Source: Patescibacteria group bacterium (GTDB lineage Bacteria; Patescibacteriota; Minisyncoccia; Portnoybacterales; UBA2143). From it: 64,000 nucleotides of DNA. The translations under genes were made by a program, and so were the position numbers. The notes below the pieces were generated by a model. The model was not told the origin of the DNA, made no database searches, and saw only the letters and a list, made by a program, of their open reading frames with translations. Location of the stretch: assembly GCA_018830295.1 (NCBI GenBank), contig JAHJSM010000002.1, positions 14,598-78,597 of the forward strand, written 5' to 3'. This document shows positions 6,315 through 61,556 of this stretch, piece after piece (within the stretch, counting starts at the first letter, position 1; the number at the start of each line of letters is the position of its first letter).

Positions 6315-6426
6315 ACCACAAGAAATAGCCGCGCTGTTTGTAATTTTGACGGGCAAACAAACCAAAAACTACTTCTAAAGAACAGGAGTAGTTTTAGCTT
6401 TTGTAATTGCGCGCTGGGTGTATAAC

Positions 6427-6457
6427 GGGGGCTGCCCCCGCCGCGGGGGCAGCCCCC
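6427..6457. repeat. GC-rich paired palindrome GGGGGCTGCCCCC-GCCGC-GGGGGCAGCCCCC (repeat family copy 1)
   Basis: perfect 13-nt inverted arms; identical copy at 62789-62819. Confidence 0.8.
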
Positions 6458-34493: not shown

Positions 34494-34569
34494 GGGCGCG
34501 TCCGTTAATTGGTTAAACGGCTGGTCTCCAAAACCGGTCCTGCAGGTTCGAGTCCTGCCGCGCCTGCCA
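34494..34569 (+). tRNA. tRNA-Trp (anticodon CCA), CCA encoded
   Basis: acceptor GGGCGCG/CGCGCCT (G1.U72), D CGTT/AACG, anticodon stem CTGGT/ACCGG with loop CTCCAAA, T-arm GCAGG-TTCGAGT-CCTGC. Confidence 0.8.
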
Positions 34570-36084
34570 ATGGGTCAGGTTAGAACCTTTAGTTTTATTA
34601 AGTTCTGCCACGAAATTAAAGGGTTCTTTAAGGTCAAAATTCAGTAACCCATCTCTTAGTATAAAGTTTTTGCCAACAGCCCTTAGAAGGGCTTTTTTGT
34701 CTTCAATACTGCCCTCCTCAAACACTTTATAAGCATGGTTGGTTTGGATAATTAGGTTTTCCGCATAATCATGCCACGCTTGATTGGTTTTATCATGGGC
34801 TTCCAATTTTTCTTTGGCTTCCATTTTGGCGTCTAAAATTTCTCTTTTTTTCTTGCCGTACTCTTCTTTTTCAATTAAGCCGTCAGTATAAAGATTAAGC
34901 AATCTATCTAGTCTGTCCTCGCATTTGTTAAATATATTTTGCCAATACTTAATACTATTTAAATATAATTCTTTTTCGTTATTGTGGCTTTTTTTGACAG
35001 CCGTCATTAAAAGTTCTTTAACCATGTCGCCAATAGTGATTTCCTTTATTTTCAACCTTAATTGTTTTTCAATTTCTTCTTCTCTTAAATAGGGTTGAGC
35101 ACATTTTCCTCTTTTTTGGGTGCAGTGGTAATAAACATGTCCTTTTTTCTCTTCGGCTGTAATTGAGCATCCGCAATAACTACATTTGATGATTCCTCTG
35201 AAGGCGAATTGCCAGCGTTGAGAAATGGGGCGGCTATTCTGGCGGAGGACTTCTTGGATTCGATCAAAGATTACTTTACTGATAAGCGGTTCATGATTTC
35301 CTTCGTATTGTTCGTTTTTCATAACCATCATTCCGTAGTAAAATGGATTTCGAAGTAATCGGGCTAAAACACTTTTACTAACTTTTTTATTTTTTAATTT
35401 ACCCCTTAAGTCAAGCTGGTAAGATTTTTCTGCCATTGTTTCCAAATTGAAGTTTCCGGTGGCATATTCCTCAAAAATTTTCTTAATTATCGAACCTTGG
35501 ATAGGATCAATTTCTATCCGTTTTAATACTTTGTTTTCCTTTTCTAAAAGCCGTTGTTTGTGTTTGTCATAACTTTTGCCCGCGATAACGCCTTTTCCGT
35601 CCATATTAATATATCCTATCGGCGCTAAACCTGGCCATTCCTTTTTAGTAGTTAGCTTATGCCTAAAACCTCTTTTAGTGTTAAAACTTAAATCATCAAC
35701 ATATTTTGTAGCCATGCCGAATTCAATTTGCATTAGAAATTTATCATTAACGCCTTCGTAAGTTTTTTCAGCAGTGACAATTTTTGAAATAGTGCCCTTG
35801 CCTAGCCAATAAATAATTCTGCCTCCATCAAGTTCATTTCTAGCTAGTCGGTCTAATTTCCAAGCGATGATCCCGCAATTTCCAGTTTCTATTTTTTCCA
35901 TCATTTCATTAAAAACAGGTCTGCCAATATCTTTGGCTGACCTGGATTCTTTGAATATCTCTACAATGTTTAATCCTTCCTTTTGCGCTAACTGAGTTAA
36001 TTCCCTAATTTGAGAATCAATTGAGAGTATTTGACGATCTTCCTCTTCTGAAGACTTGCGAACATAAAGAAAATATTGGTTCAT
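34513..36084 (-). CDS. large serine recombinase (phage-type serine integrase)
   Basis: N-terminal resolvase catalytic domain YVRKSSEEEDRQILSIDSQ (Ser nucleophile), recombinase domain, zinc ribbon CSYCGCSITAEEKKGHVYYHC, C-terminal coiled coil; last 18 codons (WQARQDSNLQDRFWRPAV) are encoded on the antisense strand of tRNA-Trp nt 34513-34569. Confidence 0.8.
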   Translation of the reverse strand: MNQYFLYVRKSSEEEDRQILSIDSQIRELTQLAQKEGLNIVEIFKESRSAKDIGRPVFNEMMEKIETGNCGIIAWKLDRLARNELDGGRIIYWLGKGTISKIVTAEKTYEGVNDKFLMQIEFGMATKYVDDLSFNTKRGFRHKLTTKKEWPGLAPIGYINMDGKGVIAGKSYDKHKQRLLEKENKVLKRIEIDPIQGSIIKKIFEEYATGNFNLETMAEKSYQLDLRGKLKNKKVSKSVLARLLRNPFYYGMMVMKNEQYEGNHEPLISKVIFDRIQEVLRQNSRPISQRWQFAFRGIIKCSYCGCSITAEEKKGHVYYHCTQKRGKCAQPYLREEEIEKQLRLKIKEITIGDMVKELLMTAVKKSHNNEKELYLNSIKYWQNIFNKCEDRLDRLLNLYTDGLIEKEEYGKKKREILDAKMEAKEKLEAHDKTNQAWHDYAENLIIQTNHAYKVFEEGSIEDKKALLRAVGKNFILRDGLLNFDLKEPFNFVAELNKTKGSNLTHWQARQDSNLQDRFWRPAV

Positions 36085-38081: not shown

Positions 38082-38741
38082 TTATCTTTCTTCAAGTTTA
38101 ATAACTACCGTTTCAAAATCAGAAGAAAGCCATGAATCATCAAGATAGACCAACTCTAAAGTATCCAGATTTATATTGTTGGGCACTTCATAGGTGATAT
38201 ATCCTCTCATTTTTCTTGTTGGCGCTAATTCAATACTTTCAAATTTTGGTTCTTTTTCGTAAATAGATCTCTCATAAATATGTCCTTGGTTATCATAAAG
38301 CTCAAAATCATATGTACTGTAATATTTAGGATTATCTGTGATATTGGTAAGTTCTATATCAATTGCAATATATTTATTACCTAGTGATGGCTGACGCCAA
38401 GAGTCAGATTCTTGATGTTTAGATATGCCGTATGCGATTATTTTACAGTTTTTTAACCATGCTTCTTTTTTAAGATATACTGTAATAATCTGAGATTTTT
38501 CAGGAGCAAGAGATTGAGTTGTTTCTTTCTTTTTGCTTCCATCTCCATCAATAAAAATAATAATAACAATGACAAAGACGATAAGCCCTAAAACAGCCAA
38601 ACAGCCATAACCTTGCTTTTCTTGCTCTTTTTTCTTAATCTCTTTTTCTGCTTTAACCCTCGCCTCTACTCGCATTTTTTCTTCCATTTCTATTTCTTCT
38701 TGTTTTGATAAATTTTCGCTTTTCTTTTTTTCTTCGTTCAT
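38082..38741 (-). CDS. membrane-anchored DUF4352-like protein
   Basis: charged N-terminus, TM, C-terminal block resembling DUF4352 (GNKYIAIDIELTNITDNPKYYSTYDFELYDNQGHIYE). Confidence 0.35.
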   Translation of the reverse strand: MNEEKKKSENLSKQEEIEMEEKMRVEARVKAEKEIKKKEQEKQGYGCLAVLGLIVFVIVIIIFIDGDGSKKKETTQSLAPEKSQIITVYLKKEAWLKNCKIIAYGISKHQESDSWRQPSLGNKYIAIDIELTNITDNPKYYSTYDFELYDNQGHIYERSIYEKEPKFESIELAPTRKMRGYITYEVPNNINLDTLELVYLDDSWLSSDFETVVIKLEER

Positions 38742-38931
38742 ATTTTTTTATTTATATTTTAATTATGTCCAAAAACACAAAGCCCCCCACGAGTGATAGT
38801 CCTTTCGGACCATCCAATAGCCTTTCGACCATTGACCCAATCACGAGTACTCAATGAGGAGCTTAATATCGTGATTGGGGTTTTATGCCATATCCCTATG
38901 AGACGAGACTTAGGCAAATTAAATTGTCTGA

Positions 38932-39870
38932 TTATAGATTATCTTTTTTATTCTTTTTAGTCAACCGCTTGTCGTGGAATTTGTGATAGGCTTCTTTTAG
39001 AAAATTGTTTGAGACACTTAAGTATCTTTCGGTTGTGGAAATTGAGCTATGTCCAAGTAATTTTTGGACAAAGTAAAGATTACAGCCGTTGTTGAGCAAA
39101 TCCACGGCGAAAGACCTCCTCATTGTATGAGGCGTGACTTTTTTGACAATCTTGGCTAATTTGCTATATTTGGTTATCAGTAATTGAACGCCCCGAGGTG
39201 ATAGCCGGGCTATTATATCCCTATCATGACGGACAAATAGGGCAGGACAATTATCTTTTCTTGCCTTAAGGTAATTTTCAAGACCATCAATGGCATTTCC
39301 GGACAGAAAAACCAGTCTAATCTTGCCTCCCTTGCCTATGATTGCGAGCTCTTTTTGTTTAAAATTAATTTGTTCCTTATTTAAATTAGTTAGTTCGAAA
39401 AGCCGGAGCCCAGTTGAAAATAAAAGTTCTAAAATTGCTTTATCTCGCAAATTGATTATTGGCTTGGCTTGGTATCTAAGTGGAGCTTTTAGTAATTTCC
39501 TCAATTCGGACCTATCTAAAAAAGTTACTTCTCTGTCACTAATTTTAGGCAATTCAATGATTTGAGGCGTAATAGCTATTTTATAATCTTGTTTTTGAAG
39601 ATGGGCAATAAAACTGCGGATTATTATTAAATAATGCGATTGGGTGGCTAAACTCAAATTTTGGCTTGATTTGCCTTTTAATTTGCTCAACCACAATTGA
39701 TAATTAATTAAATTTCTTTTAGTAATTTGGTCAATTGGAATATTGCCAAGTTGCTTTTTAAAAAGATCTAAGCCACGGCTATAACTAATTAGCGTGTGAT
39801 GACTTTTGCCTCTAATTTTTAGATATTCCAAAAAATTTTTAATGGATTGTGTTAATTTTATTGTTTCCAT
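38932..39870 (-). CDS. tyrosine recombinase (XerC/XerD-like integrase family)
   Basis: C-terminal catalytic block TPHTMRRSFAVDLLNNGCNLYFVQKLLGHSSISTTERYLSV (R...HxxR...Y). Confidence 0.8.
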   Translation of the reverse strand: METIKLTQSIKNFLEYLKIRGKSHHTLISYSRGLDLFKKQLGNIPIDQITKRNLINYQLWLSKLKGKSSQNLSLATQSHYLIIIRSFIAHLQKQDYKIAITPQIIELPKISDREVTFLDRSELRKLLKAPLRYQAKPIINLRDKAILELLFSTGLRLFELTNLNKEQINFKQKELAIIGKGGKIRLVFLSGNAIDGLENYLKARKDNCPALFVRHDRDIIARLSPRGVQLLITKYSKLAKIVKKVTPHTMRRSFAVDLLNNGCNLYFVQKLLGHSSISTTERYLSVSNNFLKEAYHKFHDKRLTKKNKKDNL

Positions 39871-40352: not shown

Positions 40353-40379
40353 GTTTTGGCTCCTTTCTAAAATTTAAAT

Positions 40380-42401: not shown

Positions 42402-43190
42402 ATGGCAAAAGAAATAACAACTAAATATTTTAAGCAATACAGACAAAAATTAGGTTTTGCCAATCAAATGGATGTTAAAAAGTTTTTTGGAGCCAAGGAT
42501 GTTCTCCCGACCGTAGATTTTAGCTACATAAAGTTATTAAACAAGAGACTTTACGAAATAGTTGATTTAATAAACGCTGTCGTTGCTGATAATATAAAGG
42601 TTGATGATCTGCTTTCGTTTAAAAAAGAAGAGATAGACCATTCTTTTGAGATAATGAAAAAAAACAAAATTTTGCCGAGATTAAATAATCTTGGCAGAAG
42701 ACCCGAACAAGTTTATTTTTCTTGGATGAGGGGCTATGTAATTTCCAGTTTTTTCTTAAAGGCATTGGGCATAGTCTTTGAGGTAGATACTTCAAAAATA
42801 GACCTAATTGGAGATGATGATTTGAGAAATATTGAAACTTTCAGAAGGACTCCAAAAGCGGATTTGGAAATTAAATTAAACGGTAAAGAAAAGGTTAGAA
42901 TAGAAATACAATCTGGTTTTACCGGTATAAATGATATAAAACAACACAAAGTGTTAGAATCAAAACGCATTTTTAGAGATTTGGGAATTCATACATTGGC
43001 AATTCATTTTGATTTATACAACGGACAAGTGGCATTTGTAAAACTAGACGAGATAGAAGACAGAAATATCAATTGGATTACAAGGCAGCAAATGGAAGGG
43101 CAAACGGTTTTTAACATAAATCAGAATTATTTCGTGTGGAAAATTACGCAGAAGCCAATCAAATATAAAAAAATCAAATTTGATTTATGA
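42402..43190 (+). CDS. candidate type II restriction endonuclease (PD-(D/E)xK-like), partner of the adjacent C5-methyltransferase
   Basis: IGDDD...PKADLEIKLNGKEKVRIEIQ fits D-x(n)-ExK; stop overlaps the MTase start (ATGA) implying co-translation. Confidence 0.35.
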   Translation: MAKEITTKYFKQYRQKLGFANQMDVKKFFGAKDVLPTVDFSYIKLLNKRLYEIVDLINAVVADNIKVDDLLSFKKEEIDHSFEIMKKNKILPRLNNLGRRPEQVYFSWMRGYVISSFFLKALGIVFEVDTSKIDLIGDDDLRNIETFRRTPKADLEIKLNGKEKVRIEIQSGFTGINDIKQHKVLESKRIFRDLGIHTLAIHFDLYNGQVAFVKLDEIEDRNINWITRQQMEGQTVFNINQNYFVWKITQKPIKYKKIKFDL

Positions 43191-44314
43191 GTAAAAAAAT
43201 CAAAATAATAGATTTGTTTTCTGGAGTTGGGGGGTTGAGTTATGGCTTTGCTCGCGATGACAATTTTGAGATAGTAGCAGCAAATGAGATTTTGGAAAAT
43301 ATGGCTAAGGCCTATTTGTTAAATCATCCAGGAGTAAAAGTTTATGTTGACGACATAAAGAATTTTAACGCGAAAATTATTAAGGGTGATCTGCGAATTA
43401 AAACAGGGAAAATTGATATAATTGTTGGCGGACCGCCTTGTCAGGCCTATTCAACAGTTGGCAAAAGATTAATTAACGATTCGCGAGGAAAACTTTTTCA
43501 AGAATATTATCGGGTTTTGAAGGAATTCAATCCGAAATTTTTTCTTTTTGAAAATGTAAAAGGATTGCTATCTATGCAAGGAGGAGAATTATTGAAAACA
43601 ATTATGTCGCTTTTTGAATCGTTGGGATACGAGACGCAATATAAGGTTTTAAACGCGGCTGACTACGGCGCGCCGCAAATAAGAGAAAGAGTCATAATTA
43701 TAGGGTCAAAATTAAAAACTAAATTTCAGTATCCAAAACCCACACATTATGATTCGAAAGAAAAACAAAGTTTGTTTAATGATAATTTGCTTCCTTATTT
43801 AACTCTTGAGGACGCCATAAGTGATTTGCCATTTATTAAAGCGGGAGAGGAAATTTTTGAATATATCTCGGAGCCAAAAAACGATTTTCAGAAAATTATG
43901 AGAGAAAATGTTCAGGAAAAGTTGATGGATCATAACGCTCCAAAAAACAACGAAAGATTAATTAAGATAATGGAATTGTTACCGGATGGCGGCACACCTG
44001 AAGATTTGCCGAAAGAGTTGCGACCAACATCGGGATTTAAAAATACTTACTGTCGTTTGTGGTGGAAACGACCATCAACTACAATTACGAGAAATTTAGG
44101 CACACCATCATCTTCCAGGTGTATTCATCCGAAAGCGCCAAGGCCGTTAACCACAAGAGAGGGGGCAAGAATTCAATGTTTTCCAGATGATTATCAATTT
44201 TATGGTTCAAGGGGCGACAGGAACTTACAAATAGGAAATGCCGTTCCGACATTTCTTTCTGTCGCGTTGGCAAAATCGATTTTAAACAATTTTCAAACAG
44301 AAAAATTGATTTAA
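43187..44314 (+). CDS. DNA (cytosine-5)-methyltransferase
   Basis: motif I DLFSGVGG, motif IV GGPPCQAYS, motif VI ENV, motif X QIGNAVP. Confidence 0.85.
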   Translation: MSKKIKIIDLFSGVGGLSYGFARDDNFEIVAANEILENMAKAYLLNHPGVKVYVDDIKNFNAKIIKGDLRIKTGKIDIIVGGPPCQAYSTVGKRLINDSRGKLFQEYYRVLKEFNPKFFLFENVKGLLSMQGGELLKTIMSLFESLGYETQYKVLNAADYGAPQIRERVIIIGSKLKTKFQYPKPTHYDSKEKQSLFNDNLLPYLTLEDAISDLPFIKAGEEIFEYISEPKNDFQKIMRENVQEKLMDHNAPKNNERLIKIMELLPDGGTPEDLPKELRPTSGFKNTYCRLWWKRPSTTITRNLGTPSSSRCIHPKAPRPLTTREGARIQCFPDDYQFYGSRGDRNLQIGNAVPTFLSVALAKSILNNFQTEKLI

Positions 44315-44408
44315 TTTACAGAAAAAGGTTTCTAGCATCTTTTTATGCAGATGCGCCTGGCGTTTCGTTGGACGATCTAATGAAATAATCAATGAATATA
44401 TTTTATTT

Positions 44409-47400
44409 ATGGCAACTTATTATCAAAACAGATATAGATATCGAGGAGGATATAATAAAAGAGCTTCGGCTAATATTAGAACAAAAGAAAACAAAGCGCC
44501 GATAGTCCATACTGATCCAACATCTTCTCGTTGGCAGAATCTTCTTAAATATTATGGAGCCTGTATTTCGGTTGAGAATTCTGGAGAAATTACGCTTTTT
44601 TCTTTTAAAGAAGGGACAGAATTTTTACAAGTGCCAGTAATGGATAAAGAGTGGGTTGCGTCTGGGAAAGAGCGATTAGAGTTTGAAGGGCAAAATGAAA
44701 AAATACAAACATTAATCAACGGGCCACGGTGGAGTCGGAGCCCGCTTTCTTTTTTTTACGGTTTTCCATGCCACATCAAACATATTGAACAATCAAGGCG
44801 CGGCTGGTCAGGTCAAATTATTCAGCCGATTTTGATTTTCGGCGTTGATCTAATACGGACGGAAACTGGGTACGCGTTTGTATTACAATCAGATAGACCA
44901 AGAATAAATTCAGCTTTTCTTACTGATAAAAGTTTATTAACCAGTGTTGAGGAAAGAAAACAAGTAGCTGAAGCGGTTTTGGGGGCATGGGACGAAGAAA
45001 AAAGCAGAGAGCAGAACCTTAAAACCATTCTTAGCGCATTTGCCGAATTACTACCGCAAGAGGTTTTATTTTCAAAAGATATTTTACGCGACAAAACGAC
45101 TGAATTGAAAGCAGAAAACAGTATTTTGCCTCTTGGAATAATTTTTCGAAGCGTGGATTCAAAATATACATACGGATTAGAACAGGAGTTGAGCGAACTG
45201 CGGGGCGTTGCCACTCCGAATGATGTTTGGCGCGTCATTTTGGACCGAAATACAGAAGATGGAAAAAATAACAAGAATGACGAGTTTTTGGAAATAACTG
45301 GACTGAACGATGAACAGCGCGGAGCGGTCAAAAGTGCTTTTAATAATATAGTTAGCGTAATCACAGGGCCGCCAGGAACTGGAAAATCGCAAATTGTCCT
45401 CAATATTATTGCTAATGCCTTATTACATAACGAGAGCGTCTTGTTCGGAAGTAAAAATCATAAGGCAGTTGATGTTGTTATTGAACGGTTGTTGCGACTA
45501 CAGTCAGAACCAGTCATTTTAAAATATGGGCAAAAAGAACGAGAGGTTGAGTTTGCAGAAGCGCTTTTATCTGCGATTGAGCGCGCATCAAGTTATGACA
45601 GTCAAATATTAGAACGCGAAATCGGAGAATATAAGAAAAAATTAGAATTAATCAGAGAGGAAGAAGAAGAGGCGAAAAAATCTCTTTTTCGTATTCTTGA
45701 CCGGAGAAATCGCATCAGCCATCTTGATGCCGTTCTTGAATTAATTAAAACGGAGTTGCCTTCACCAATTTCTAAAAATTTAAAGCAGTATAAAAAGATT
45801 GAAAGAAATTATAACTTTAATAGATTACTTGGTCTTTTGGGTCGTTTGATAAAAGAAATTGATGGGGACTTGAGTTTTGTTTCGCGCATCCTTTCTTTTT
45901 TTGGTTTAACCATAGAGAAGCGGGTATTGAAAGCTTCAAAGTCTTTGCTTATTGTTATGCCTATTCAGGGCATTTCTTTTCCGATCAAATCAGAACATAA
46001 TTGCAGGGAGATTTTGACTGTTGCGCGTTTACTGAAGCGATGGATGGATAATCAATCAGAACTTCTAAGCGTTGTGCGCGAAAATGAAAATGAACAACGA
46101 ATAGAAATTTTACGAGAGAGAATAACAAAAAGTAAAGAGCGCGCAATTGATGTCAGTATCAGATATGTTGATGCGCTGATGAAGCGTCGCTTGAAATCAT
46201 TAGGAAGTAAGGAGCGACGCGATATTGCTGATTATGTAAGTATTGTTCGGCGACTAGAAGGCGATGTAATTGGCGGCGATTTTGCCAAAAGATTATACAA
46301 TGAAAGAAAGCGGATGTTTAAGAGCGTGGTTAGAGCATTTCCGGCAATGGCTGTAACAAACCTGTCTGTACGCCATGCGCTTCCATTAAGCGCTGATGTT
46401 GTTGATATAGTGGTTATTGACGAAGCGTCGCAATGCGATATTGCATCAGCACTTCCGCTCCTGTATAGAGCAAAACGGGCTGTAATTATTGGAGATCCGA
46501 ATCAGCTTACCCATATTTCTCTTTTACATCGCGCAGACGATCAGCAATTGCAGCAACAGATGGGGTTAACCTCCACGGATGACCAGCGTTTTCTTTACAG
46601 CATCAACTCTCTTTTTGAACTTGCAAGAAGTACTGTTGGCACAGGAGCAAAGTTTACGCACCTGCTTGAACATTATCGTAGTCGCGCAGAGATTATTGGA
46701 TTTTCAAATAAAAGATTTTACGGCAATAGGTTGAGCGTGTGGACGGATTATAGGCGATTGCGCGGAACAGGACATCCAGACGCTGTTGTTTGGCATGATG
46801 TTGTTGGAGAAGTTATTCGTCCATCTGTCGGAAGCGCTTATAATCTTGATGAAGCAAAAGAAATTGTTGTGTTGATTGAGGAGATTATTAAAAGAATTGC
46901 GGCGCATGGCGATGATTATTCTGTATCGCTTGGCGTCGTGACTCCATTCAGGGAACAAGCGAATAAGATTAGAGATTTAATAGGGCAAAAAATAGATGCA
47001 GCTCAGCTACGAAAGTTGGATTTTATAGTCGAAACTGCTCATAAATATCAAGGCGATGAGAAAGATATAATGATTTTCTCCCCCGTAGTATCCCGTAAAA
47101 TTCAAAAACGCTCACTCGGATTTTTAGGTAGTACGGTTAATTTATTTAATGTAGCGATTACTCGCGCGCGGGCAGAATTACATATTGTCGGTGATAGAGT
47201 TGCTTGTGCTCAATCGGGCATTCTACATCTTTCGAAGTTTGTGCAATATGTCGATGAATTAGAGCCAGAAAATAAAGACCAAAAAGGTGGAAAATTTGAG
47301 TCGCCATGGGAGGAAGTTTTGTACGATGCGCTCGCTCGGAAAGGGATTAAGACAATCCCTCAATATCCTCTCCATCAATATCGTCTTGATCTTGCTATCG

Positions 47401-47606
47401 TTGATTCAGAAATTCCCATTGATATAGAAATTGATGGAGAGATGTGGCATCGTGATATTGATGGGGGGCGATTGCTTTCAGATTTAAAGCGGGACCAACA
47501 TCTTATTATGTACGGCTGGCAAGTTAAGCGGTTTTGGGTGTATCAGCTCCAAAATGACTTAGAACAATGCGTGCAAGAAATAAAGGAAATCATTAAGAAA
47601 AAATGA
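44409..47606 (+). CDS. SF1 (Upf1/DNA2-like) helicase fused to C-terminal DUF559/Vsr-like endonuclease domain; unknown about 300-aa N-terminal domain
   Basis: Walker A TGPPGTGKSQ, motif II VVIDEASQ, AAA_12-like C-lobe (FSPVVSR...GSTVNLFNVAITRARAELHIVGD); C-terminal ...YPLHQYRLDLAIVDSEIPIDIEIDGEMWH resembles the DUF559 (PD-(D/E)xK) fold. Confidence 0.7.
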   Translation: MATYYQNRYRYRGGYNKRASANIRTKENKAPIVHTDPTSSRWQNLLKYYGACISVENSGEITLFSFKEGTEFLQVPVMDKEWVASGKERLEFEGQNEKIQTLINGPRWSRSPLSFFYGFPCHIKHIEQSRRGWSGQIIQPILIFGVDLIRTETGYAFVLQSDRPRINSAFLTDKSLLTSVEERKQVAEAVLGAWDEEKSREQNLKTILSAFAELLPQEVLFSKDILRDKTTELKAENSILPLGIIFRSVDSKYTYGLEQELSELRGVATPNDVWRVILDRNTEDGKNNKNDEFLEITGLNDEQRGAVKSAFNNIVSVITGPPGTGKSQIVLNIIANALLHNESVLFGSKNHKAVDVVIERLLRLQSEPVILKYGQKEREVEFAEALLSAIERASSYDSQILEREIGEYKKKLELIREEEEEAKKSLFRILDRRNRISHLDAVLELIKTELPSPISKNLKQYKKIERNYNFNRLLGLLGRLIKEIDGDLSFVSRILSFFGLTIEKRVLKASKSLLIVMPIQGISFPIKSEHNCREILTVARLLKRWMDNQSELLSVVRENENEQRIEILRERITKSKERAIDVSIRYVDALMKRRLKSLGSKERRDIADYVSIVRRLEGDVIGGDFAKRLYNERKRMFKSVVRAFPAMAVTNLSVRHALPLSADVVDIVVIDEASQCDIASALPLLYRAKRAVIIGDPNQLTHISLLHRADDQQLQQQMGLTSTDDQRFLYSINSLFELARSTVGTGAKFTHLLEHYRSRAEIIGFSNKRFYGNRLSVWTDYRRLRGTGHPDAVVWHDVVGEVIRPSVGSAYNLDEAKEIVVLIEEIIKRIAAHGDDYSVSLGVVTPFREQANKIRDLIGQKIDAAQLRKLDFIVETAHKYQGDEKDIMIFSPVVSRKIQKRSLGFLGSTVNLFNVAITRARAELHIVGDRVACAQSGILHLSKFVQYVDELEPENKDQKGGKFESPWEEVLYDALARKGIKTIPQYPLHQYRLDLAIVDSEIPIDIEIDGEMWHRDIDGGRLLSDLKRDQHLIMYGWQVKRFWVYQLQNDLEQCVQEIKEIIKKK

Positions 47607-47755: not shown

Positions 47756-47785
47756 TATTGACTTTTTTATCTAATATGATATTAT
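47756..47785 (+). promoter_or_regulatory. sigma-70-like promoter TTGACA-18-TATTAT, about 230 nt upstream of the subtilase gene (long structured 5' leader)
   Basis: consensus -35 and near-consensus -10; leader contains an 11-bp hairpin CATCTACATA...TATGTAGATG (47865-47910) and a GC hairpin plus T-tract near 47925-47965. Confidence 0.4.
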
Positions 47786-48016
47786 ACCGATAGAGAAAGT
47801 GAGTAACAATTTGATAACCTAACCTTTGAGCTTTTCGCTTGGAGTATGGTTTAAATCCATCTACATAAAAACGGTCTTCTGGCCGGCACTATGTAGATGG
47901 TCTTTGTCCGAAAGGGCATTGGGTGATCTGAAAGGATTGCCGCCGACGGAAGGCCTTTTTTGTTGGCAAAATTTATTGGGGGAAATCAATTTAAATAATT
48001 TAATAATCAAAAAAAT

Positions 48017-51000
48017 ATGAACAAAAAAACAATAAAAAAATACATGGCGGGGTTTATGGTGATAGCGTTTCTTACGGGAACGCTGGCGCCAATGTCGTTG
48101 GTTTTTGCGGCGGATGAAAAAATAACAAAAGGTGAATTAGAATTAAAAAAATTAACAACTGGGAAGTTAATAAATTTTGATGGCGAGGAAAAAGTAGAAA
48201 CCTTTAGCGCGAATGAGAATTTAAAAAAGTCGGCGGATGTAAAACAATCGCAAAAACAAAATTATGTAGAGGGCGAGGTTTTAGTGAAATTTAAGGAACA
48301 GAAAATAAATTTAGAGCAGTTGTCTGGCAGAATGAAATCCGCGTGGTTTGCCACTGGAAAAAATTTAGATAAAAAAGAAGATATTAGAAAAAGTAATATC
48401 TCTGTTTTCAAAACAAAAAGTGATGAGTCGGCGGAGGCAATGGTTGAGAGATTAAAGAATGATTCGAATGTAGAATATGCTGAACCGAATTATATACGAC
48501 AATGGACATCAATAACTCCAAATGATACTGATTTCAGTAAACTATGGGGATTACATAACACAACCAATGATGCTGATATTGATGCTCCAGAGGCATGGGA
48601 TATTTTTACAGGATCTAATTCTGTTGTTGTGGCGGTTTTAGATTCCGGCATTGCTTATAATCATCCTGATTTGATAAATAATATGTGGAATGGGAACACT
48701 AACCATGGTTGGGATTTTTTTAATGATGATGATAATCCACTTGATGATAATGGTCATGGAACTCATGTGGCTGGAACTATTGGAGCTGAAGGCAATAATG
48801 GTATTGGCATAACTGGAGTTAATTGGGATGTAAAATTAATGGCATTAAAAGTGGGAAGTTATGATGGTAATGTTGGTGATATCGTAGAAGCAATTGATTT
48901 TGCTATAAATAATGGTGTTAAAATAATCAATGCAAGTTTTAGCGGTTCCGAAAATTCACAAGCAGAATATGATGCAATAGACCGTTTTAGACAAGCTGGC
49001 GGAATTTTCATCGCGGCGGCTGGGAATGGTGGCGCTGATCAAATTGGTGATAATAACGATTCAAGTCCACAATATCCAGCTGACTATGCTTTGGATAATA
49101 TTATTTCCGTTGCTGCTACAGATCAAAATGATAATTTAACTGAATGGTCTAACTATGGTGTTGCTGCTGTTGATGTTGGAGCTCCTGGGGTGAATATTTA
49201 TAGTATGGTTGCGGACACCAATGTTTTTTCTGAAAATTTTGAAGATGATATTTATAAAGTTGGGCATGGCGGTACGGATAGTCATTGGATAATAGGTTAT
49301 GATGGATTTTCTAAAGTTGCTTATTCTGATAGTTCTTATCCTTATTCGCCAGACGCATATACTTGGTTAATGCAAAAAGAAGATTTAGATCTTTCGGACA
49401 GTTCTATTGTTGGAGCTACATTAGGTTTTACTATATGGTGCGATACTCCGATTAGTGCAACTTTTGATGATTATATATATACTTCTTATCGTTCGGGCGG
49501 AAGTTGGTATTATTCAACAAAATATGATGAACTACAAATTAATTTAGATGGAGGTAGTAGTTGGATAGACAATGGTCATACGGGTTATTATAAAAGATAT
49601 ACTGAAAATATTTCAGATTACCTTACAAATGATTTTAATTTTAGTTTTGATTGGATTACGGATTCTTCTATCGATTATAACTATGGATGTACAATTGATG
49701 ATATTGTAATCACAAAATACACCGATGGTTCAGATGAAAATTATGATTATGCCGACGGCACTTCAATGGCCGCTCCTCATGTTACAGGACTGGCGGCTTT
49801 GATTTGGGGATATAAATCGGAGCTTTCTTATGCTGAAGTTAAAAATGTTATTTTGACTACTGGGGATAATTTATCTTCTCTTGCTAACAAAACCGTAACC
49901 GGAAAAAGAATTAATGCTTTTAACGCTCTCAATTCTTTGATAGATTTAACTGCTCCAGAATTAAGTGAAGTAAATCCAGTGCCAACGCTGACCAATGATA
50001 ATGCTCCTGATTATACATTCAGTTCAACCGAAGCGGGAACAATCAATTATAGCGGCGGATGCGTTAGTGATACCACCGATGCGGCTGAAGGCGATAACGC
50101 AATAACCTTTAATGAGTTAGATGATGGAGTTTATGGTGGATGCGCGATTACAGTAACTGATGCCAACAATAACGAAAGCGCGCCTTTGGCTATAACTACA
50201 TTTACCATAGACACAACCTCGCCAGTAATTACTTTATCTGGTATTAATCCAGTTGAACTTCTTTTAGATGAGGATTACACAGAATATGGCGCTACTGCCG
50301 AAGACAATATTGATGGAGATATTTCAGGGGAAATAGAAATTGACGATAGTTCAATTGATACATCCACAACAGGAACTTATGAAGTAACTTACAATGTTTC
50401 AGATGCGGCAGGGAATGAGGCAGATGAAGTAATAAGAACTGTTAATGTTGGCGAGATTCCCAACACTCCGCCAGTAATGGAATCAATAACTTTAGAGCCA
50501 AATCCCGCATATACAAATACTGACATTACCGCAACGGCAGTTGCTTCTGATGGTAATGGCGATATAGTTACTTTTTCTTACCAATGGGAAAAGAATGGCG
50601 AGAATATGGGAGATGACAGCGATACATTGCTAAGCGATAATTTTGTCAAAGGCGATACAATAAAAGTTGAAGTTATTCCGAATGATGGAACTATTGATGG
50701 CGACTCAATGGAATCAGACCCGATAACAATTTCAAACTCAATTCCAACTCAACCAACGGTTTCTATTTCGCCGAATCCAGCTTATGCGAATAATGACTTA
50801 ACTTGTACTCCAAATGGCTCAACTGACGCTGATAGTGATGGATTTAACTATGTATATCAATGGTATAAAGATGATGTTATTCAAGAAGGTTATACTTCAA
50901 ACACAGTGCTTGCATCGCAAATTGCCGCAGGCGATGTTTGGAAATGCTCGGTTGTCGCGGATGACGGCGAGGCGCAAAGCGTTACTGGCGAAGATTCCGT

Positions 51001-53836
51001 TACCATATTGGAAGTTCCGGACACAACCCCGCCAATCATCACTTTGATTGGAGAAAACACAGTAACTTTGGAAGTCGGCGCGGAATACAATGACGCTGGC
51101 GCCACCGCGACTGATAATGTTGACGGTGATGTTAGCGTATCCATTATCGCTGGCGGAGATACGGTTGATGCGGACACACTGGGAACTTACACCATAACCT
51201 ATAATGTTTCGGATAGCGCTGGTAATCCTGCCACAGAAGTAACCCGAACTGTAAATGTAGTTGACACCACCGCACCAGTAATTACTCTACTCGGCGACAA
51301 CCCAGTTAATCTTGAAGTTGGCGCGATTTATAACGACGCTGGGGCAACAGCCAGTGATAACTATGACGGAAACATTACCGCCAACATAATTACTGTAAAT
51401 CCTGTTAATTCAAGCATAATCGGCGCGTACACTGTGACTTATAATATTACCGACTCTTCTGGCAATACAGCCGATGAAGTCAACAGAACGGTCAATGTAG
51501 TTGATACTACTGTACCGATTATCACATTACTCGGAGAAAATCCTTTCACAATAGCGGTTAATTCGACTTACGAAGATGCCGGTGCCACTGCTCTTGATAA
51601 CTATGATGGCGATCTAACCGCAAATATTGTAACGGTTAATTCTGTGGATATTAATAATGTTGGTGCCTATCAAGTCACCTACAATGTCACTGATGTCGCA
51701 GGTAATTCCGCCGTTGAAGTCGCAAGAACTGTTAATGTGGTGGATGTTTCAACTCCAATTATTACCTTACTCGGCGACAACCCGACAACTGTTGAGTTTG
51801 GCACTGAATATGAAGACGCTGGCGCCACTGCCGCGGACGATGTTGACGGCGATATTACTGATAGTATTGTGGCCGTAAATAATGTTGATACAAGTATTTT
51901 GGGTTCGTATTCTGTAACCTATAATGTTATTGATTCCTCGAGCAATCAAGCGCCCGAAGTCGTGAGAACTGTAAATGTAGTAGATACTGTAGTTCCTGTT
52001 ATGACTTTAATTGGGGATGATGCCGTTGATGTTGAAGTTGGCTATGAATATAATGATAAAGGAGCCACTGCTTCCGATAATTACGACGGAGATATTACGG
52101 ATAGTATAGCGACAGTAAACAATGTTGATACAAATACAGTTGGAACATATTCAGTCACTTATAATGTTTCTGATTCTTCAGGAAACGCTGCTACTGAAGT
52201 AATTAGAACGGTAATAGTCGGACCCGATTTAACTTCTCCTGTAATTACTTTAAATGGAGGAGACATGAATATTTATGATGGATCAACATATATTGACTCA
52301 GGAGCCACTGCTTCTGATAATATTGATGGAGATATTACTGGCAGTATAGTGATAGTAGATAATGTTGACGCAAATACAGTTGGAACATATTCAGTCACTT
52401 ATAATGTTTCCGACATAGCTGGCAATTCAGCTGACGAAGTAGTCAGGATAATAACCGTTTTGCCCGTAGAAGAAGAGCAAGTAATGATTGCTGCCGATAT
52501 GGATATAAGTTCAAGTTTTCAAGAAATTTTAATTGGCAGTAACGCTCCTGCAACTTCCAATATTAATGTTCCATCCGACGCCACAAACGCAAAATTAAAT
52601 GTTTCAGCTTTAATGAGTGGCACTGATGTTACCTTACCGACTGGTCTTACTATTAATTCAGAAACAAGTATTGGTGAAGTAAATGTTCAAATTCCGCAAA
52701 GCACTTTGATTTCTGGCGAAGCTGGCTGGACAGGCGAAATTAATTTGCCGCAAGTTCAGGAAAATTCCAGCGTAAGCGCTACTCCTGATTCCGGCAATAC
52801 CGCGACAGTATCATCGGTTATAGAAATAGGTTTTGGCGATACTTTATTGAATTTTGATAAAGCCGTGAGGATAAAAATAACTGGTCAAGCGGGTAAATAT
52901 GTTGGATATTCGCGCAATGGTGTTTTTACTCCGATTACAAATGTTTGCAGCGCTGACTCGCAAGTCGTTGGCGATGCTTTGGCGGAAGGGAGTGAATGTA
53001 AAATAAATGTTGGTTCGGATTTAGTGATTTGGACTAAACACTTTACTAAGTTTGCTACTTATACGCAGACTGCTATACCTGGTAGTGGCGGAGGCGGTGG
53101 AGGTGGAGGTGGAGGTGGAGGCGTTTCAGTTATCACACCAACTAATTATTCAGTTAAAATAAATAGTAATGCGACTTCTACTGATAATCGGAATGTGAGA
53201 TTAACTTTAGCGGCAACTAATGCTGTATCAATGGCAGTTTCCAATGAGCCAACCTTTACGGGTATTAGTTTTGAAACTTATGCCACAACTAAAGACTGGA
53301 CATTAAGTGAAGGCGTGGGACAAAAAACCGTTTATGTTCGTTTCCGAAGTTCAAGCGGTGTAACGGTGAATACTTCTGTATCTATAAATTTGACTGCTTC
53401 TGTCTTGATGCCTTTAACGCCATCTATTGCAAGCAGCGCGTCGCAAGGTCAAGTTTTGGGTGAGCAAAAATTCGCCGAAGGAGCTTTAATTCGAGCCATT
53501 GGCGATATTGATGTCTATATTGTTAAATACATAAGCGAAAAACAATTCAAGAGATTGATTTTAAGCCCATCTGTCTTTAATAGTTATCAGCATTTAGAAT
53601 GGAGCGACATACTTGATATAGAAAAGAGCGTGGTTGATTCTTTCGCCACTTCCGAATTAGTAAGAGCCGTTAATGATGATAAGGTATATAAATTATATCC
53701 GAATGGAGATATAGGTGAGAAATGTTGGATTGAAACTAGCGAGGTGTTTATTGAGAATGGTTTTGACTGGGATGCTGTTTATGAAATTAATGCGTTTGAT
53801 AGAGATTCTTATATCACAGGACAAAATATAAAATAA
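48017..53836 (+). CDS. giant secreted subtilisin-like serine protease (peptidase S8) with I9 propeptide, about 8 tandem Ig-like (DUF5011/HYR-like) domains, poly-Gly linker and C-terminal domain
   Basis: signal peptide; catalytic triad contexts VVAVLDSGIAYNHPD (Asp), DDNGHGTHVAGTIGA (His), GTSMAAPHVTGLAALI (Ser); repeated about 80-aa units P(V/I)ITL.G(D/E)N...E.G..Y.D.GATA.D..DGD(I/L)T...; GSGGGGGGGGGGGGV. Confidence 0.8.
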   Translation: MNKKTIKKYMAGFMVIAFLTGTLAPMSLVFAADEKITKGELELKKLTTGKLINFDGEEKVETFSANENLKKSADVKQSQKQNYVEGEVLVKFKEQKINLEQLSGRMKSAWFATGKNLDKKEDIRKSNISVFKTKSDESAEAMVERLKNDSNVEYAEPNYIRQWTSITPNDTDFSKLWGLHNTTNDADIDAPEAWDIFTGSNSVVVAVLDSGIAYNHPDLINNMWNGNTNHGWDFFNDDDNPLDDNGHGTHVAGTIGAEGNNGIGITGVNWDVKLMALKVGSYDGNVGDIVEAIDFAINNGVKIINASFSGSENSQAEYDAIDRFRQAGGIFIAAAGNGGADQIGDNNDSSPQYPADYALDNIISVAATDQNDNLTEWSNYGVAAVDVGAPGVNIYSMVADTNVFSENFEDDIYKVGHGGTDSHWIIGYDGFSKVAYSDSSYPYSPDAYTWLMQKEDLDLSDSSIVGATLGFTIWCDTPISATFDDYIYTSYRSGGSWYYSTKYDELQINLDGGSSWIDNGHTGYYKRYTENISDYLTNDFNFSFDWITDSSIDYNYGCTIDDIVITKYTDGSDENYDYADGTSMAAPHVTGLAALIWGYKSELSYAEVKNVILTTGDNLSSLANKTVTGKRINAFNALNSLIDLTAPELSEVNPVPTLTNDNAPDYTFSSTEAGTINYSGGCVSDTTDAAEGDNAITFNELDDGVYGGCAITVTDANNNESAPLAITTFTIDTTSPVITLSGINPVELLLDEDYTEYGATAEDNIDGDISGEIEIDDSSIDTSTTGTYEVTYNVSDAAGNEADEVIRTVNVGEIPNTPPVMESITLEPNPAYTNTDITATAVASDGNGDIVTFSYQWEKNGENMGDDSDTLLSDNFVKGDTIKVEVIPNDGTIDGDSMESDPITISNSIPTQPTVSISPNPAYANNDLTCTPNGSTDADSDGFNYVYQWYKDDVIQEGYTSNTVLASQIAAGDVWKCSVVADDGEAQSVTGEDSVTILEVPDTTPPIITLIGENTVTLEVGAEYNDAGATATDNVDGDVSVSIIAGGDTVDADTLGTYTITYNVSDSAGNPATEVTRTVNVVDTTAPVITLLGDNPVNLEVGAIYNDAGATASDNYDGNITANIITVNPVNSSIIGAYTVTYNITDSSGNTADEVNRTVNVVDTTVPIITLLGENPFTIAVNSTYEDAGATALDNYDGDLTANIVTVNSVDINNVGAYQVTYNVTDVAGNSAVEVARTVNVVDVSTPIITLLGDNPTTVEFGTEYEDAGATAADDVDGDITDSIVAVNNVDTSILGSYSVTYNVIDSSSNQAPEVVRTVNVVDTVVPVMTLIGDDAVDVEVGYEYNDKGATASDNYDGDITDSIATVNNVDTNTVGTYSVTYNVSDSSGNAATEVIRTVIVGPDLTSPVITLNGGDMNIYDGSTYIDSGATASDNIDGDITGSIVIVDNVDANTVGTYSVTYNVSDIAGNSADEVVRIITVLPVEEEQVMIAADMDISSSFQEILIGSNAPATSNINVPSDATNAKLNVSALMSGTDVTLPTGLTINSETSIGEVNVQIPQSTLISGEAGWTGEINLPQVQENSSVSATPDSGNTATVSSVIEIGFGDTLLNFDKAVRIKITGQAGKYVGYSRNGVFTPITNVCSADSQVVGDALAEGSECKINVGSDLVIWTKHFTKFATYTQTAIPGSGGGGGGGGGGGGVSVITPTNYSVKINSNATSTDNRNVRLTLAATNAVSMAVSNEPTFTGISFETYATTKDWTLSEGVGQKTVYVRFRSSSGVTVNTSVSINLTASVLMPLTPSIASSASQGQVLGEQKFAEGALIRAIGDIDVYIVKYISEKQFKRLILSPSVFNSYQHLEWSDILDIEKSVVDSFATSELVRAVNDDKVYKLYPNGDIGEKCWIETSEVFIENGFDWDAVYEINAFDRDSYITGQNIK
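51020..52460 (+). repeat. tandem about 240-bp (about 80 aa) repeats encoding Ig-like domains within the subtilase gene
   Basis: units starting near 51020, 51260, 51500, 51740, 51980, 52220 (and diverged copies at 50210 and 50990) all begin TT(A/P)P(V/I)ITL(L/I)G(D/E)N. Confidence 0.7.
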
Positions 53837-53855
53837 TGAATTGTTAGAAATATTA

Positions 53856-53888
53856 AAAGACTTGCTCTTACCGCAAGTCTTTTTTTTG
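53856..53888 (+). terminator. intrinsic terminator AAGACTTGC...GCAAGTCTT plus T8
   Basis: 9-bp stem followed by TTTTTTTT right after the subtilase stop. Confidence 0.7.
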
Positions 53889-53911
53889 TGCTATAATACT
53901 AACAGGGTATT

Positions 53912-54880
53912 ATGATAAAGAATTTTAAGAAATATTTTATTCCGAACAAGGGCAATAGTCACAAGCCGCGCATTTTGAGGTGGAAGGTGGCGTTAGTAAT
54001 ATTGAGTTTTATTTTGTTCGTTGAAGTTTGTTTTTTAGTTCAGGTTCTTTGGTTTATCCCGCAAGGCAATTTTTTTGCTTCAGTCGCGCCTATGGCTATT
54101 GAAGGATTTACTAATCAAAACCGTCTAAGTAATAATTTAGAGTCGCTTAAAACTAATTCTTTATTGGAAAAAGCTGCCCAACTTAAGGCAGAAGATATGG
54201 CTACCAAGGGCTATTTTGCTCATACTAGCCCCGAAGAAGGTCTGACGCCTTGGTATTGGTTGGATAAGGTTGGTTATGAATATGTTTTGGCTGGTGAAAA
54301 TTTAGCGATTAATTTCGTGGATTCTCAAGATGCCATTAATGCATGGATGAATTCGCCAACCCACAAGGCTAATATTTTAAATAATAATTTTGTTGAGATT
54401 GGCGTTGGCGCGGCCAAAGAGATATATGAAGGCAAGGAGACAATTTTTATTGTTCAGCTTTTCGGTCGCCCGGTAACAATGACTGCTCAATCAGTTGCTG
54501 TCGCGCAAGAAAAAAAACAGTCAGTTCCGCCTACCGTAGAGATCTCCAATGAATCGATTGTCGGAGATTCAACTGCTGTCAAAGGAGAAGTAAAAAATTC
54601 TATTATGCCCGATGATTCAGGTTTTGTCGGGTTAGTAGTTAGAGAGAATTTGTCGCCGAGTATCGTTAGTCGATTTTTATCAACGCCTCGCGCTATTAGT
54701 AATTATTTCTATTTTGTTTTGTTCACTATTTTGGCGTTGGCTTTGTTATTGAGTATTTTCATTAAAATTAAAATTCAGCACCCGGCGTTAATTGTTAATG
54801 GCGTTGTTCTGCTTATTGTGATTTCGGCGATAATCTGGATAAATCAATATATTGTTTTTGCGCAGGCGAAGATAATTTAG
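53912..54880 (+). CDS. membrane-anchored CAP (SCP/PR-1-like) domain protein
   Basis: N-terminal TM; GYFAHTSPEEGLTPWYWL...AGENLA...AINAWMNSPTHKANIL CAP signature; C-terminal TM segments. Confidence 0.65.
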   Translation: MIKNFKKYFIPNKGNSHKPRILRWKVALVILSFILFVEVCFLVQVLWFIPQGNFFASVAPMAIEGFTNQNRLSNNLESLKTNSLLEKAAQLKAEDMATKGYFAHTSPEEGLTPWYWLDKVGYEYVLAGENLAINFVDSQDAINAWMNSPTHKANILNNNFVEIGVGAAKEIYEGKETIFIVQLFGRPVTMTAQSVAVAQEKKQSVPPTVEISNESIVGDSTAVKGEVKNSIMPDDSGFVGLVVRENLSPSIVSRFLSTPRAISNYFYFVLFTILALALLLSIFIKIKIQHPALIVNGVVLLIVISAIIWINQYIVFAQAKII

Positions 54881-60915: not shown

Positions 60916-60944
60916 AAAAGGATTAGGGTGGAGATAATAACAAA

Positions 60945-61030
60945 TGAATAGCCATAGACAATAGGCAGGCGATAAGTCCTATCGAGGTAAAGAAGTTTTG
61001 GGATTTTTGGTCTGTCTATGGTTGACGGAC
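60945..61030 (+). promoter_or_regulatory. candidate ribosomal protein L10 leader (autoregulatory structured 5' UTR)
   Basis: nested stems CCATAGACA...TGTCTATGG and ATAGG...CCTAT immediately upstream of rplJ; no covariance model run. Confidence 0.4.
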
Positions 61031-61037
61031 TTTTTTT

Positions 61038-61556
61038 ATGATTACAAAAGAAAAGAAAAAGGAAATTGTGGATGGTTTGACGGATAAACTTTCGCGGCAG
61101 ACAGCGGTTGTTTTTTTTGATTATACTGGACTGAAAGTTAATCAGGTTCAGAAATTGCGCGAGAAGTTGAGGGGGGAAGAAATAGATTGTCAGGCGAGCA
61201 AAAAAACATTGATTGATTTGGCTTTGGGCAAGGCAGGATTAAGCGGAGTTAAGATTAAGGATTTACCCGGGCAGGTCGCGATGGTTCTTGGGTATAAAGA
61301 TGAGGTTGCGCCGGCTAAGATTTTGTATGATTTTTCAAAAGGTAATGAAAATTTGAAGATTTTGTCTGGTTTTGTTCAGGGAGAGTATTTGGGAAATGAT
61401 GCGATTTTAAGTTTGGCTAAACTTCCGTCTAAGCAAGAATTGTTAGGAAAATTGGTTGGCAGTATCGCGTCGCCTTTGTCGGGCATGGTTAATGTTTTGC
61501 AGGGCAATTTGAGAGGATTAATTTGTGTATTAAAACATAAGGGATTAAAAGCGTAG
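61038..61556 (+). CDS. rplJ: 50S ribosomal protein L10
   Basis: L10 N-terminal KKEIVDGLTDKLSRQTAVVFFDYTGLKVNQVQKLR; followed by rplL. Confidence 0.85.
   Translation: MITKEKKKEIVDGLTDKLSRQTAVVFFDYTGLKVNQVQKLREKLRGEEIDCQASKKTLIDLALGKAGLSGVKIKDLPGQVAMVLGYKDEVAPAKILYDFSKGNENLKILSGFVQGEYLGNDAILSLAKLPSKQELLGKLVGSIASPLSGMVNVLQGNLRGLICVLKHKGLKA

Follow-up and report, generated by a model that had tools for sequence, protein, structure and literature searches.

A Patescibacteria pre-pro-subtilase with a predicted self-cleaving MAIN-like module, a candidate envelope anchor and a LOOT RNA leader

We analysed a stretch of 64,000 nucleotides, referred to here as the window, from a Patescibacteria group bacterium (assembly GCA_018830295.1, contig JAHJSM010000002.1, positions 14,598 to 78,597 of the forward strand), with a focus on the gene for a large secreted subtilase and on the LOOT RNA in its leader. 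Encoding 1939 aa, this gene is the largest open reading frame (ORF) of the window, exactly as the initial annotation had placed it (the runner-up ORF has 1065 aa), and the exact protein is without a record in the public gene index. The gene lies between a promoter-like site with a structured leader and a terminator-like hairpin (Table 1), and the unit looks monocistronic. A subtilase head on an Ig-like stalk is ordinary for the phylum and belongs to a very large family. Beyond this routine are a predicted self-cleavage module with a Gly hinge, a terminal domain that is widespread among secreted proteins, and a LOOT leader with a long-range helix. On balance we favour the view that the locus encodes a sheddable pre-pro-subtilase of the type described for bacterial MAIN proteins, with a predicted envelope anchor and a LOOT leader.

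Table 1. Features of the subtilase locus and of the second LOOT copy (positions in the window)
Feature	Residues	Position	Strand	Basis or remark
Second LOOT RNA, same 3' tail		38769..38916	-	RF03000 match 38795-38916, 73.9 bits
Sigma-70-type promoter-like site TTGACT-16-(TG)TATTAT		47758..47785	+	10/12 matches, top-ranked in scan
LOOT RNA including 3' tail		47816..47963	+	RF03000 match 47816-47941
LOOT 3' tail outside the Rfam model, CGCCGACGGAAGGCCTTTTTTGT		47941-47963	+	pairs with apex of hairpin P3, 47864-47888
Pre-pro-subtilase gene		48017..53836	+	1939 aa, ATG start; stop included
Putative signal peptide	1-31	48017..48109	+	MNKKTIKKYMAGFMVIAFLTGTLAPMSLVFA, then cleavage, then ADEK; judged by eye
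Propeptide	73-158	48233..48490	+	PF22148, Fervidolysin_NPro-like
Peptidase S8 domain	~190-640	48584..49936	+	PF00082 and alignment to PDB subtilases
Catalytic Asp	D209	48641-48643	+	in VLDSG; alignment
Catalytic His	H247	48755-48757	+	in GHGTH; alignment
Oxyanion Asn	N337	49025-49027	+	in AAGN; alignment
Beta-rich insert, ~175 aa	401-575	49217-49741	+	between GAPGVNIYS and GTSMA
Catalytic Ser	S583	49763-49765	+	in GTSMAAPH; alignment
Big_13 Ig-like domain	643-733	49943..50215	+	Pfam, E 6.8e-7, 30.1 bits vs 27
PF16403 repeat 1	736-811	50222..50449	+	Pfam, motif anchors
Two modules of ~90 aa	815-1000	50459..51016	+	Y-x-W...G/C motif
PF16403 repeats 2-7	1006-1481	51032..52459	+	head to tail, period ~80 aa; units by motif anchors 1006-1081, 1087-1161, 1167-1241, 1247-1321, 1327-1401, 1408-1481
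GAIN-B/ZU5-like ('MAIN'-like) beta-sandwich	1482-1688	52460..53080	+	predicted fold
Predicted autoproteolysis site	H1675-F1676, cut, T1677	53039-53047	+	turn between last two strands
Gly13 hinge	1690-1702	53084..53122	+	GGTGGA-type hexanucleotide repeat (nt 53085-53121)
Beta-sandwich-like module	1703-1800	53123..53416	+	kept together with the tail in proteins P0121 and P0122
C-terminal domain, 129 aa	1811-1939	53447..53833	+	two tandem beta-beta-beta-alpha-beta-alpha repeats
Intrinsic-terminator-like hairpin, 11 bp and T run		53855..53890	+	19 nt past the subtilase stop

The N-terminus of the protein has a K-rich n-region, a hydrophobic core and a cut site VFA|A, and by sequence inspection it reads as a Sec-type signal peptide. 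The propeptide that follows had been described as I9-like. A propeptide is indeed present, but the I9 family (PF05922) gave no Pfam match in the protein at E<=0.01 and this identity was rejected, the region matching PF22148 instead (E 8.6e-13, 48.9 bits, cut-off 21). The catalytic domain scored 182.8 bits against PF00082 in Pfam (cut-off 21.8) in two stretches on either side of an insert, and 141 subtilases of the PDB matched at E<=1e-5, deseasin MCP-01 (3vv3) being the best sequence match with E 2e-58. The triad and oxyanion residues were placed by aligning deseasin MCP-01, thermitase and subtilisins, and the proposed intact Asp/His/Ser triad holds, with D209, H247 and S583 aligned to the motifs of deseasin and thermitase. 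Judged from these residues, the enzyme may act as an S8 protease once the propeptide is removed. The insert is retained by relatives, whose query coverage is 76-94%, and the lone hint to its identity is the InhA-like MAM family (PF20773, E 0.01, below cut-off); the extra NCBIfam matches of the whole protein, to subtilase and LapB-repeat families, were all sub-threshold. The protein thus shares the S8 fold and triad with deseasin MCP-01, fervidolysin and thermitase, and its propeptide is of the fervidolysin type. Lactococcal PrtP and the streptococcal C5a peptidase ScpA offer a parallel in their insert before the catalytic Ser, beta-sandwich stalk and C-terminal anchor. Unlike in these enzymes, the insert of the present subtilase is not a PA domain, its stalk consists of PF16403 and Big_13 in place of Fn3 domains, and it has no LPXTG anchor and carries a predicted self-cleaving release module.

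In total the stalk counts eleven beta-sandwich modules. About eight consecutive repeats of about 80 aa had been reported; the unit length stands, but the units number seven and are arranged as one plus six rather than consecutively, the two modules at residues 815-1000 separating unit 1 from unit 2. Pfam assigned all seven, as had been suggested, to PF16403 (Bact_surface_Ig-like, formerly DUF5011) with 407 bits in total over seven stretches, and the same units gave weaker overlapping matches to HYR, InlK_D3, LapB_rpt_80 and OmpL47. Between any two units, 51-65% of the residues and 56-73% of the nucleotides are identical, and TRF found no long-period tandem array in the subtilase gene. These values point to old duplications, in agreement with the earlier remark that the DNA copies are diverged, and they rule out an assembly artefact or a recent duplication. 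The two separating modules gave only Ig_2 at E 0.011, below cut-off, and no significant PDB relative; they are probably PKD-like beta-sandwiches.

A search with residues 1-740 gave more than 7,700 homologs at E<=1e-10, with an identity of 64% for the best, and the protein's nearest relatives all belong to Patescibacteria. The named homologs of the S8 head come from Patescibacteria, Paceibacterota, Saccharibacteria and similar groups, and they are typically 700-1290 aa long with varied sets of C-terminal domains. In the closest relative (L001, 10001-16401), an S8 head of 841 aa adjoins a separate gene of 1278 aa with He_PIG, Big_6 and PF16403 domains and a MAIN-like module, an arrangement that suggests gene fusion or fission within the family. 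Another locus, L002, encodes a 699-aa protein that corresponds to the tail only (window residues 1404-1939, 62% identity, 10-Gly linker), followed by a CAP-domain gene that is 58% identical to the CAP gene downstream of the subtilase. With the genes split in L001 and the tail standing alone in L002, the 1939-aa protein seems to have arisen through the fusion of shuffled cassettes. The CAP/SCP-domain protein encoded downstream of the subtilase in the window (53912-54880) has C-terminal transmembrane segments, and CAP domains elsewhere often carry the C-terminal domain of the subtilase in fusion.

Between the stalk and the Gly hinge lies a module of residues 1482-1688 that has no sequence match in Pfam, NCBIfam or PDB. 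Its predicted model (pLDDT 96) has a fold like that of ZU5/GAIN-B autoproteolytic domains, a fold class that takes in the autoproteolytic GAIN, FIIND and Nup98 domains, and in this model the strands E187-195 and E197-205 flank H1675-F1676-T1677. Kin of the module with 45-67% identity occur internally in many Patescibacteria proteins, in some archaeal-labelled proteins and in one protein of Desulfocucumaceae. The sole long invariant stretch of the module alignment is W-T-K-H-F-T-x-F (residues 1672-1679), with F1676 replaced by Leu in one member; W-T-K-H-x-T-x-F is thus invariant against about 47% identity for the remainder of the module. The 90 fetched homologs contain 83 occurrences of the motif, read as HFT in 76, HFS in five and HLT in two.

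GAIN-like 'MAIN' domains have been described as widespread in bacteria and archaea, with self-cleavage at HX(S/T) shown experimentally and the site of Bacillus subtilis YfkN mapped to HF|S (Brogan & Rudner, bioRxiv 10.64898/2026.05.12.724683, May 2026 preprint). According to the same preprint (10.64898/2026.05.12.724683), the fragments remain associated after cleavage and surface proteins are thereby released, and the usual order is signal peptide, adhesion or enzymatic payload, MAIN domain and cell-surface or wall anchor in proteins of 158 kDa on average; its main text mentions neither Patescibacteria nor peptidases. The subtilase has the same layout of signal peptide, payload, MAIN-like module and terminal module, the last one being an anchor by prediction. 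This layout, together with HX(S/T) at the last beta-turn, predicts cleavage between F1676 and T1677, after the Phe of H-F-T, in parallel to the HF|S of YfkN. By this analogy, residues 1482-1688 probably cut their own backbone at F1676|T1677. The calculated N-terminal fragment (residues 32-1676) would have 175 kDa with the propeptide and about 160 kDa without it, and the C-terminal fragment (residues 1677-1939) 28 kDa.

The likeness to YfkN and other MAIN proteins, compared by description, lies in a payload followed by a GAIN-B-like sandwich with HX(S/T) at the last beta-turn, and the subtilase of 206 kDa is larger than the family mean given above. Unlike the described members, it comes from Patescibacteria, has an S8 protease as payload and Thr as the predicted nucleophile, and carries a poly-Gly hinge after the module; its anchor candidate is an unannotated tandem-repeat domain, whereas MAIN proteins use LPXTG, SLH or known wall-binding domains. 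The eukaryotic GAIN domains of adhesion GPCRs and the ZU5/FIIND domains of ankyrin, UNC5, CARD8 and NLRP1 have no detectable sequence similarity to the module, which is without a helical GAIN-A part and a 7TM partner, and the C-terminal fragment is a predicted wall-binding stub here and a receptor in adhesion GPCRs.

The Gly run of 13 residues noted in the initial annotation was confirmed, as was the distinct C-terminal domain. Across homologs, the 30 residues past the last strand of the module contain 24% G, 17% S and 12% T, and a run of at least five Gly follows the module in 43 of 81, the L002 relative having ten. With Gly-rich linkers after the module in most homologs, the hinge is a family feature, situated just past the predicted cleavage strand. 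It is here that a fixed-stalk surface protease, a single chain without self-cleavage in which the ZU5/GAIN-like module is merely structural or binding, has to be weighed. We regard it as unlikely, as the H, the hydrophobic X and the T/S are kept in 83 of 83 motif occurrences in a module otherwise about 47% identical, as the motif falls precisely on the last beta-turn, which is the GAIN/MAIN cleavage position, and as the module, with a flexible linker and then a terminal module behind it, repeats the MAIN architecture.

The region beyond the hinge (residues 1703-1939) gave no Pfam or NCBIfam match even at E<=10, its beta-sandwich-like part at 1703-1800 included, which had no match above cut-off in these databases. 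The fold of the C-terminal domain resembles the PlyCB/endolysin wall-binding modules and the EccB1 periplasmic repeats, as two PlyCB/EccB-like repeats, and a PDB sequence profile search with the domain returned nothing significant. With 60-76% identity, the domain forms the very C-terminal end of over 80 proteins from many species, behind unrelated heads such as cohesin, CAP, M23, trypsin, transglutaminase, S8 and fn3. A profile search of 1.84 billion representatives found it in 2,454 proteins at E<=1e-3 and in 1,499 at E<=1e-10. Among 130 representatives, 84 carry it C-terminally and 34 N-terminally, right after the signal peptide, while it makes up a whole short protein in eight and is internal in four, so that it is terminal in 126 of the 130. 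The domain is therefore a widespread unannotated terminal module of Patescibacteria secreted proteins. Sortase, S-layer or other known anchoring signals, which the initial annotation had proposed to look for in this domain, were not found: the tail, which ends in ...YITGQNIK, gave no LPXTG, hydrophobic tail, SLH, LysM, PG_binding, CW_binding or choline-binding element in motif and profile searches, and a known anchor was rejected. In all ten proteins carrying both, the MAIN-like module precedes the C-terminal domain, and in sister proteins PG_binding_1, SLH or dockerin stands at the equivalent place after the module. From these comparisons, the best inference is that the C-terminal domain is likely an envelope anchor.

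The same observations bear on a different use of the domain, as it could bind the envelope of another cell, either host or prey, and so turn the released protein into a targeted weapon or adhesin that bridges or attacks. The fold recalls phage endolysin wall-binding modules, which are binders of foreign or host walls; M23 peptidase, CHAP-like, trypsin and transglutaminase heads carry the same domain; its N-terminal position in 34 of 130 proteins means that it need not be the base of a stalk; and Patescibacteria are commonly episymbionts. We nevertheless find such a weapon quite improbable, since in MAIN proteins the module past the cleavage site is the producer-side anchor, since PG_binding_1 and SLH, which take the position of the domain in sister proteins, bind the producer's own wall, and since a ligand on the producer itself, which would be conserved, accounts for 60-76% identity among many species better than a range of hosts would.

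For the sheddable subtilase that we favour, the following course may be envisaged. The protein would be exported by the Sec pathway and lose its N-terminal propeptide as other subtilases do, placing an active S8 head with a jelly-roll-like insert at the tip of a long stalk made of Big_13, seven PF16403 units and the two unassigned beta-sandwiches. An N-O acyl shift at F1676|T1677, with H1675 as the base and T1677 as the nucleophile, would then cut the chain. The new N-terminal strand TKFATYTQ would stay inserted in the sandwich and hold the two chains together non-covalently. The large fragment of about 160-175 kDa would comprise the protease and adhesin parts, and the 28-kDa stub the TKFATYTQ strand, the Gly13 hinge, the beta-sandwich and the tandem PlyCB/EccB-like domain. 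This terminal domain would hold the complex on the cell envelope, and shear or unfolding would shed the protease from the stub. Upstream, transcription would run from the strong promoter through the LOOT leader, in which the apex of hairpin P3 pairs with a GC-rich 3' tail ending in a U tract and may form a terminator or pseudoknot gate before the ORF.

A strong promoter and a structured leader of about 230 nt had been proposed ahead of the gene, and both proved correct. The TTGACT-16-TATTAT site with its TG is the best in the region, and the leader, from about 47792 to the start codon (234 nt), has a folding z-score of -4.8 and could be identified as a LOOT RNA. Its match to RF03000 in Rfam reaches 67.6 bits (E 1.2e-12, gathering score 46.4) over model positions 1-121, and the promoter-like site lies about 30 nt upstream. 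RF03000 is typed in Rfam as a small RNA (sRNA), and its 121-position model stops before the tail; no description of LOOT was found in the main text of Weinberg et al. 2017 (PMC5737381). A compact terminator right after LOOT was considered and dropped: the scanned hairpin at 47942-47967 has its U run inside the stem and is thus better read as the 3' strand of a long-range helix. The second copy, on the minus strand, is flanked by two genes of the same strand: a tyrosine recombinase gene (38932..39870, -), whose stop precedes it by 16 nt, and a DUF4352 membrane-protein gene (38082..38741, -), which begins about 54 nt downstream of it. The two copies are alike in their 3' part and in the AAAAAAATATGAAC start region, and each has a promoter some 30 nt ahead of it.

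To place these copies among others, one genome per species was scanned with a 22-base pattern, which returned 108 loci (L123-L230), mostly from Patescibacteria. The CCTAA motif, which lies outside the search pattern, was present in 75 of them, and the 85 copies analysed comprise these 75, eight that were LOOT-like by eye and the two of the window. With a looser pattern on viral contigs, none among the matches listed looked like LOOT, and the L001 and L002 loci, which encode the closest protein relatives, gave no LOOT. In every copy, about 24 nt past the end of the Rfam model are complementary to the P3 apex. The duplex of apex and tail has a mean of -26.7 kcal/mol for cognate pairs; with a non-cognate partner the mean is -16.1, and with a shuffled tail -11.6. 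In an alignment of 77 sequences, the helix of 20 pairs is 90.2% paired, against 47-56% with a slid partner; 19 of the 20 pairs show changes on both sides, and covariation scores 0.588, a value that stays at or below 0.209 once the partner is slid. The inner P3 hairpin of the Rfam model was unsupported on the 77 copies, being 66.5% paired with covariation no higher than shuffles, and as it competes for the same bases, the helix with the stronger evidence is preferred. The P3 apex and the tail are thus joined by a newly seen helix of some 20 bp, which lies outside the Rfam model and takes the place of the inner P3 hairpin. Its end in A-tract:U-tract pairing makes it look like a fold-completing pseudoknot or a terminator-type gate.

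Of the 85 copies, 63 have an ORF in the same orientation whose start lies -10 to 130 nt past the LOOT end, the distances peaking at 30-100 nt; the divergent-strand control gives 26 of 85. The 60 downstream genes that were scanned include four for DUF6804, three for DNA methylases, three for DUF4352, two for S8 proteases, two for SNase, assorted nucleases and many for small membrane proteins; in L125, L136 and L225, the downstream protein carries the C-terminal-type domain. A LOOT-led large S8 gene in L185 is ortholog-like (43% identity over residues 1-991) and runs off its contig, and its LOOT and leader are 71% identical in DNA to those of the window. At this locus (DAOWHA010000052.1, reverse strand 3743-6835) the called ORF has 535 aa and the tblastn similarity continues to the contig end; the short ORF could be due to an in-frame stop, a sequencing error or a pseudogene. 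As a raw count without control, 62 of the 75 CCTAA copies have a -10-like hexamer within 45 nt upstream of CCTAA. Besides, a conserved box ACAATTNAAT (e.g. AACAATTTGATAA and AACAATTTAATAG) was seen directly 5' of LOOT P1 in many of the 40 copies with printed upstream sequence, usually 5-15 nt after the -10-like hexamer; in the window it occupies 47803-47815, and it may be the transcript 5' end or an operator. Given its placement and pairing, LOOT may act as a gate in cis ahead of the ORF.

Taken as a whole, the idea of a sheddable, LOOT-led subtilase has several points against it. Searched against a set of 5.8 billion proteins, the profile of the MAIN-like module returned 43 fragments, short for the most part and none of them from a named MAIN protein, and profile searches gave no sequence link between the module and validated MAIN domains. 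Many ZU5 domains, such as those of ankyrin and UNC5B, do not cleave; the signal peptide was called by eye alone; and Rfam files LOOT as an sRNA, action in cis being a suggestion. We still hold the sheddable form to be the probable one. The secreted cell-surface protease or adhesin of the initial annotation agrees with it in the signal peptide, triad, stalk and terminal module; the cleavage module, the identity of the terminal module and LOOT had been missed.

Whether the gene was brought in by a neighbouring mobile element concerns its origin only, and such a cargo reading is compatible with the explanation that we prefer. The order upstream is a tRNA-Trp with a large serine recombinase, an array of small genes led by the second LOOT copy, the tyrosine recombinase with RadC, an ORF-poor stretch, candidate restriction-modification genes and a helicase. 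The tRNA-Trp gene (34494-34569) and the large serine recombinase ORF (34513..36084, -) lie on opposite strands and overlap at the 3' end of the latter, and the GC skew is negative from about 34 to 42 kb, both of which are consistent with an integrative element at or beside the tRNA gene. The DUF4352 gene heads a co-oriented array of small membrane, secreted and HTH genes that extends up to the serine recombinase. That the subtilase gene is cargo of this island, taken to run from the tRNA-Trp/serine recombinase at 34.5 kb to the helicase end at 47.6 kb, appears doubtful to us. The gene directly follows the defence genes of the island, and its LOOT leader, the one feature that it shares with island cargo, is also found on the DUF4352 gene inside the island; the genes that LOOT leaders generally head are accessory ones, for instance for DNA methylases, nucleases and small membrane proteins, and 29 of 83 LOOT loci have a large serine recombinase homolog within the 8-kb locus, a raw count without background control. 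Against this, no direct repeats bound an element containing the subtilase, only short AT-rich chance matches being found from the tRNA-Trp region to the subtilase, and its base composition is not distinct from the flanks. In L185, LOOT and the orthologous S8 gene adjoin murA, ispG and ispH with no recombinase within 3.5 kb, and the 6-kb contig of L002 has the tail cassette and CAP gene in synteny (58% identity) without the S8 head or island genes.

Apart from these, some further features of the neighbourhood were observed. Recombinases near LOOT lie in various orientations, at times only about 230 nt away. The ORF-poor stretch (40353-41890, about 1.5 kb) has no ORF above 73 aa, the 2-kb composition interval containing it has 40% GC against 33% in the 2-kb intervals on either side, and nothing in Rfam came close to a gathering score; decayed genes or a large non-coding RNA could account for it. 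A defence-type cluster (42402-47606) lies directly upstream of the subtilase promoter. Its genes encode an unannotated protein of 262 aa, which is a candidate restriction enzyme, a C5 DNA methyltransferase as judged by eye, and an SF1 helicase of 1065 aa (AAA_11/AAA_12) that carries a DUF559/MTES_1575 nuclease domain in fusion. At 60934-61045, the leader of ribosomal protein L10 (RF00557) was matched with 46.2 bits, barely over the gathering score of 44.

Patescibacteria are tiny bacteria that live attached to surfaces and are mostly uncultured, and most of their envelope proteins lack annotation. The probable MAIN self-cleaving module, with a protease payload and an HFT site, would extend force-releasable surface enzymes to bacteria of the CPR, where the subtilase may have a role in an episymbiotic lifestyle. 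If the 129-residue domain, with its about 2,450 protein clusters, is the general anchor of the phylum, surface proteomes would become predictable from sequence. The orphan LOOT RNA gains a context through its long-range helix, its fixed spot before accessory genes and its proximity to serine recombinases, and its function becomes approachable by experiment. We suggest only tentatively that LOOT, instead of being a free-standing sRNA, is a cis-acting leader in the form of a pseudoknot or terminator gate, possibly responsive to a ligand or a protein, that heads accessory units of serine-recombinase islands in Patescibacteria, and that it would here control a force-releasable MAIN-type protease with a Patescibacteria-wide anchor, as a regulated and sheddable system between symbiont and host.

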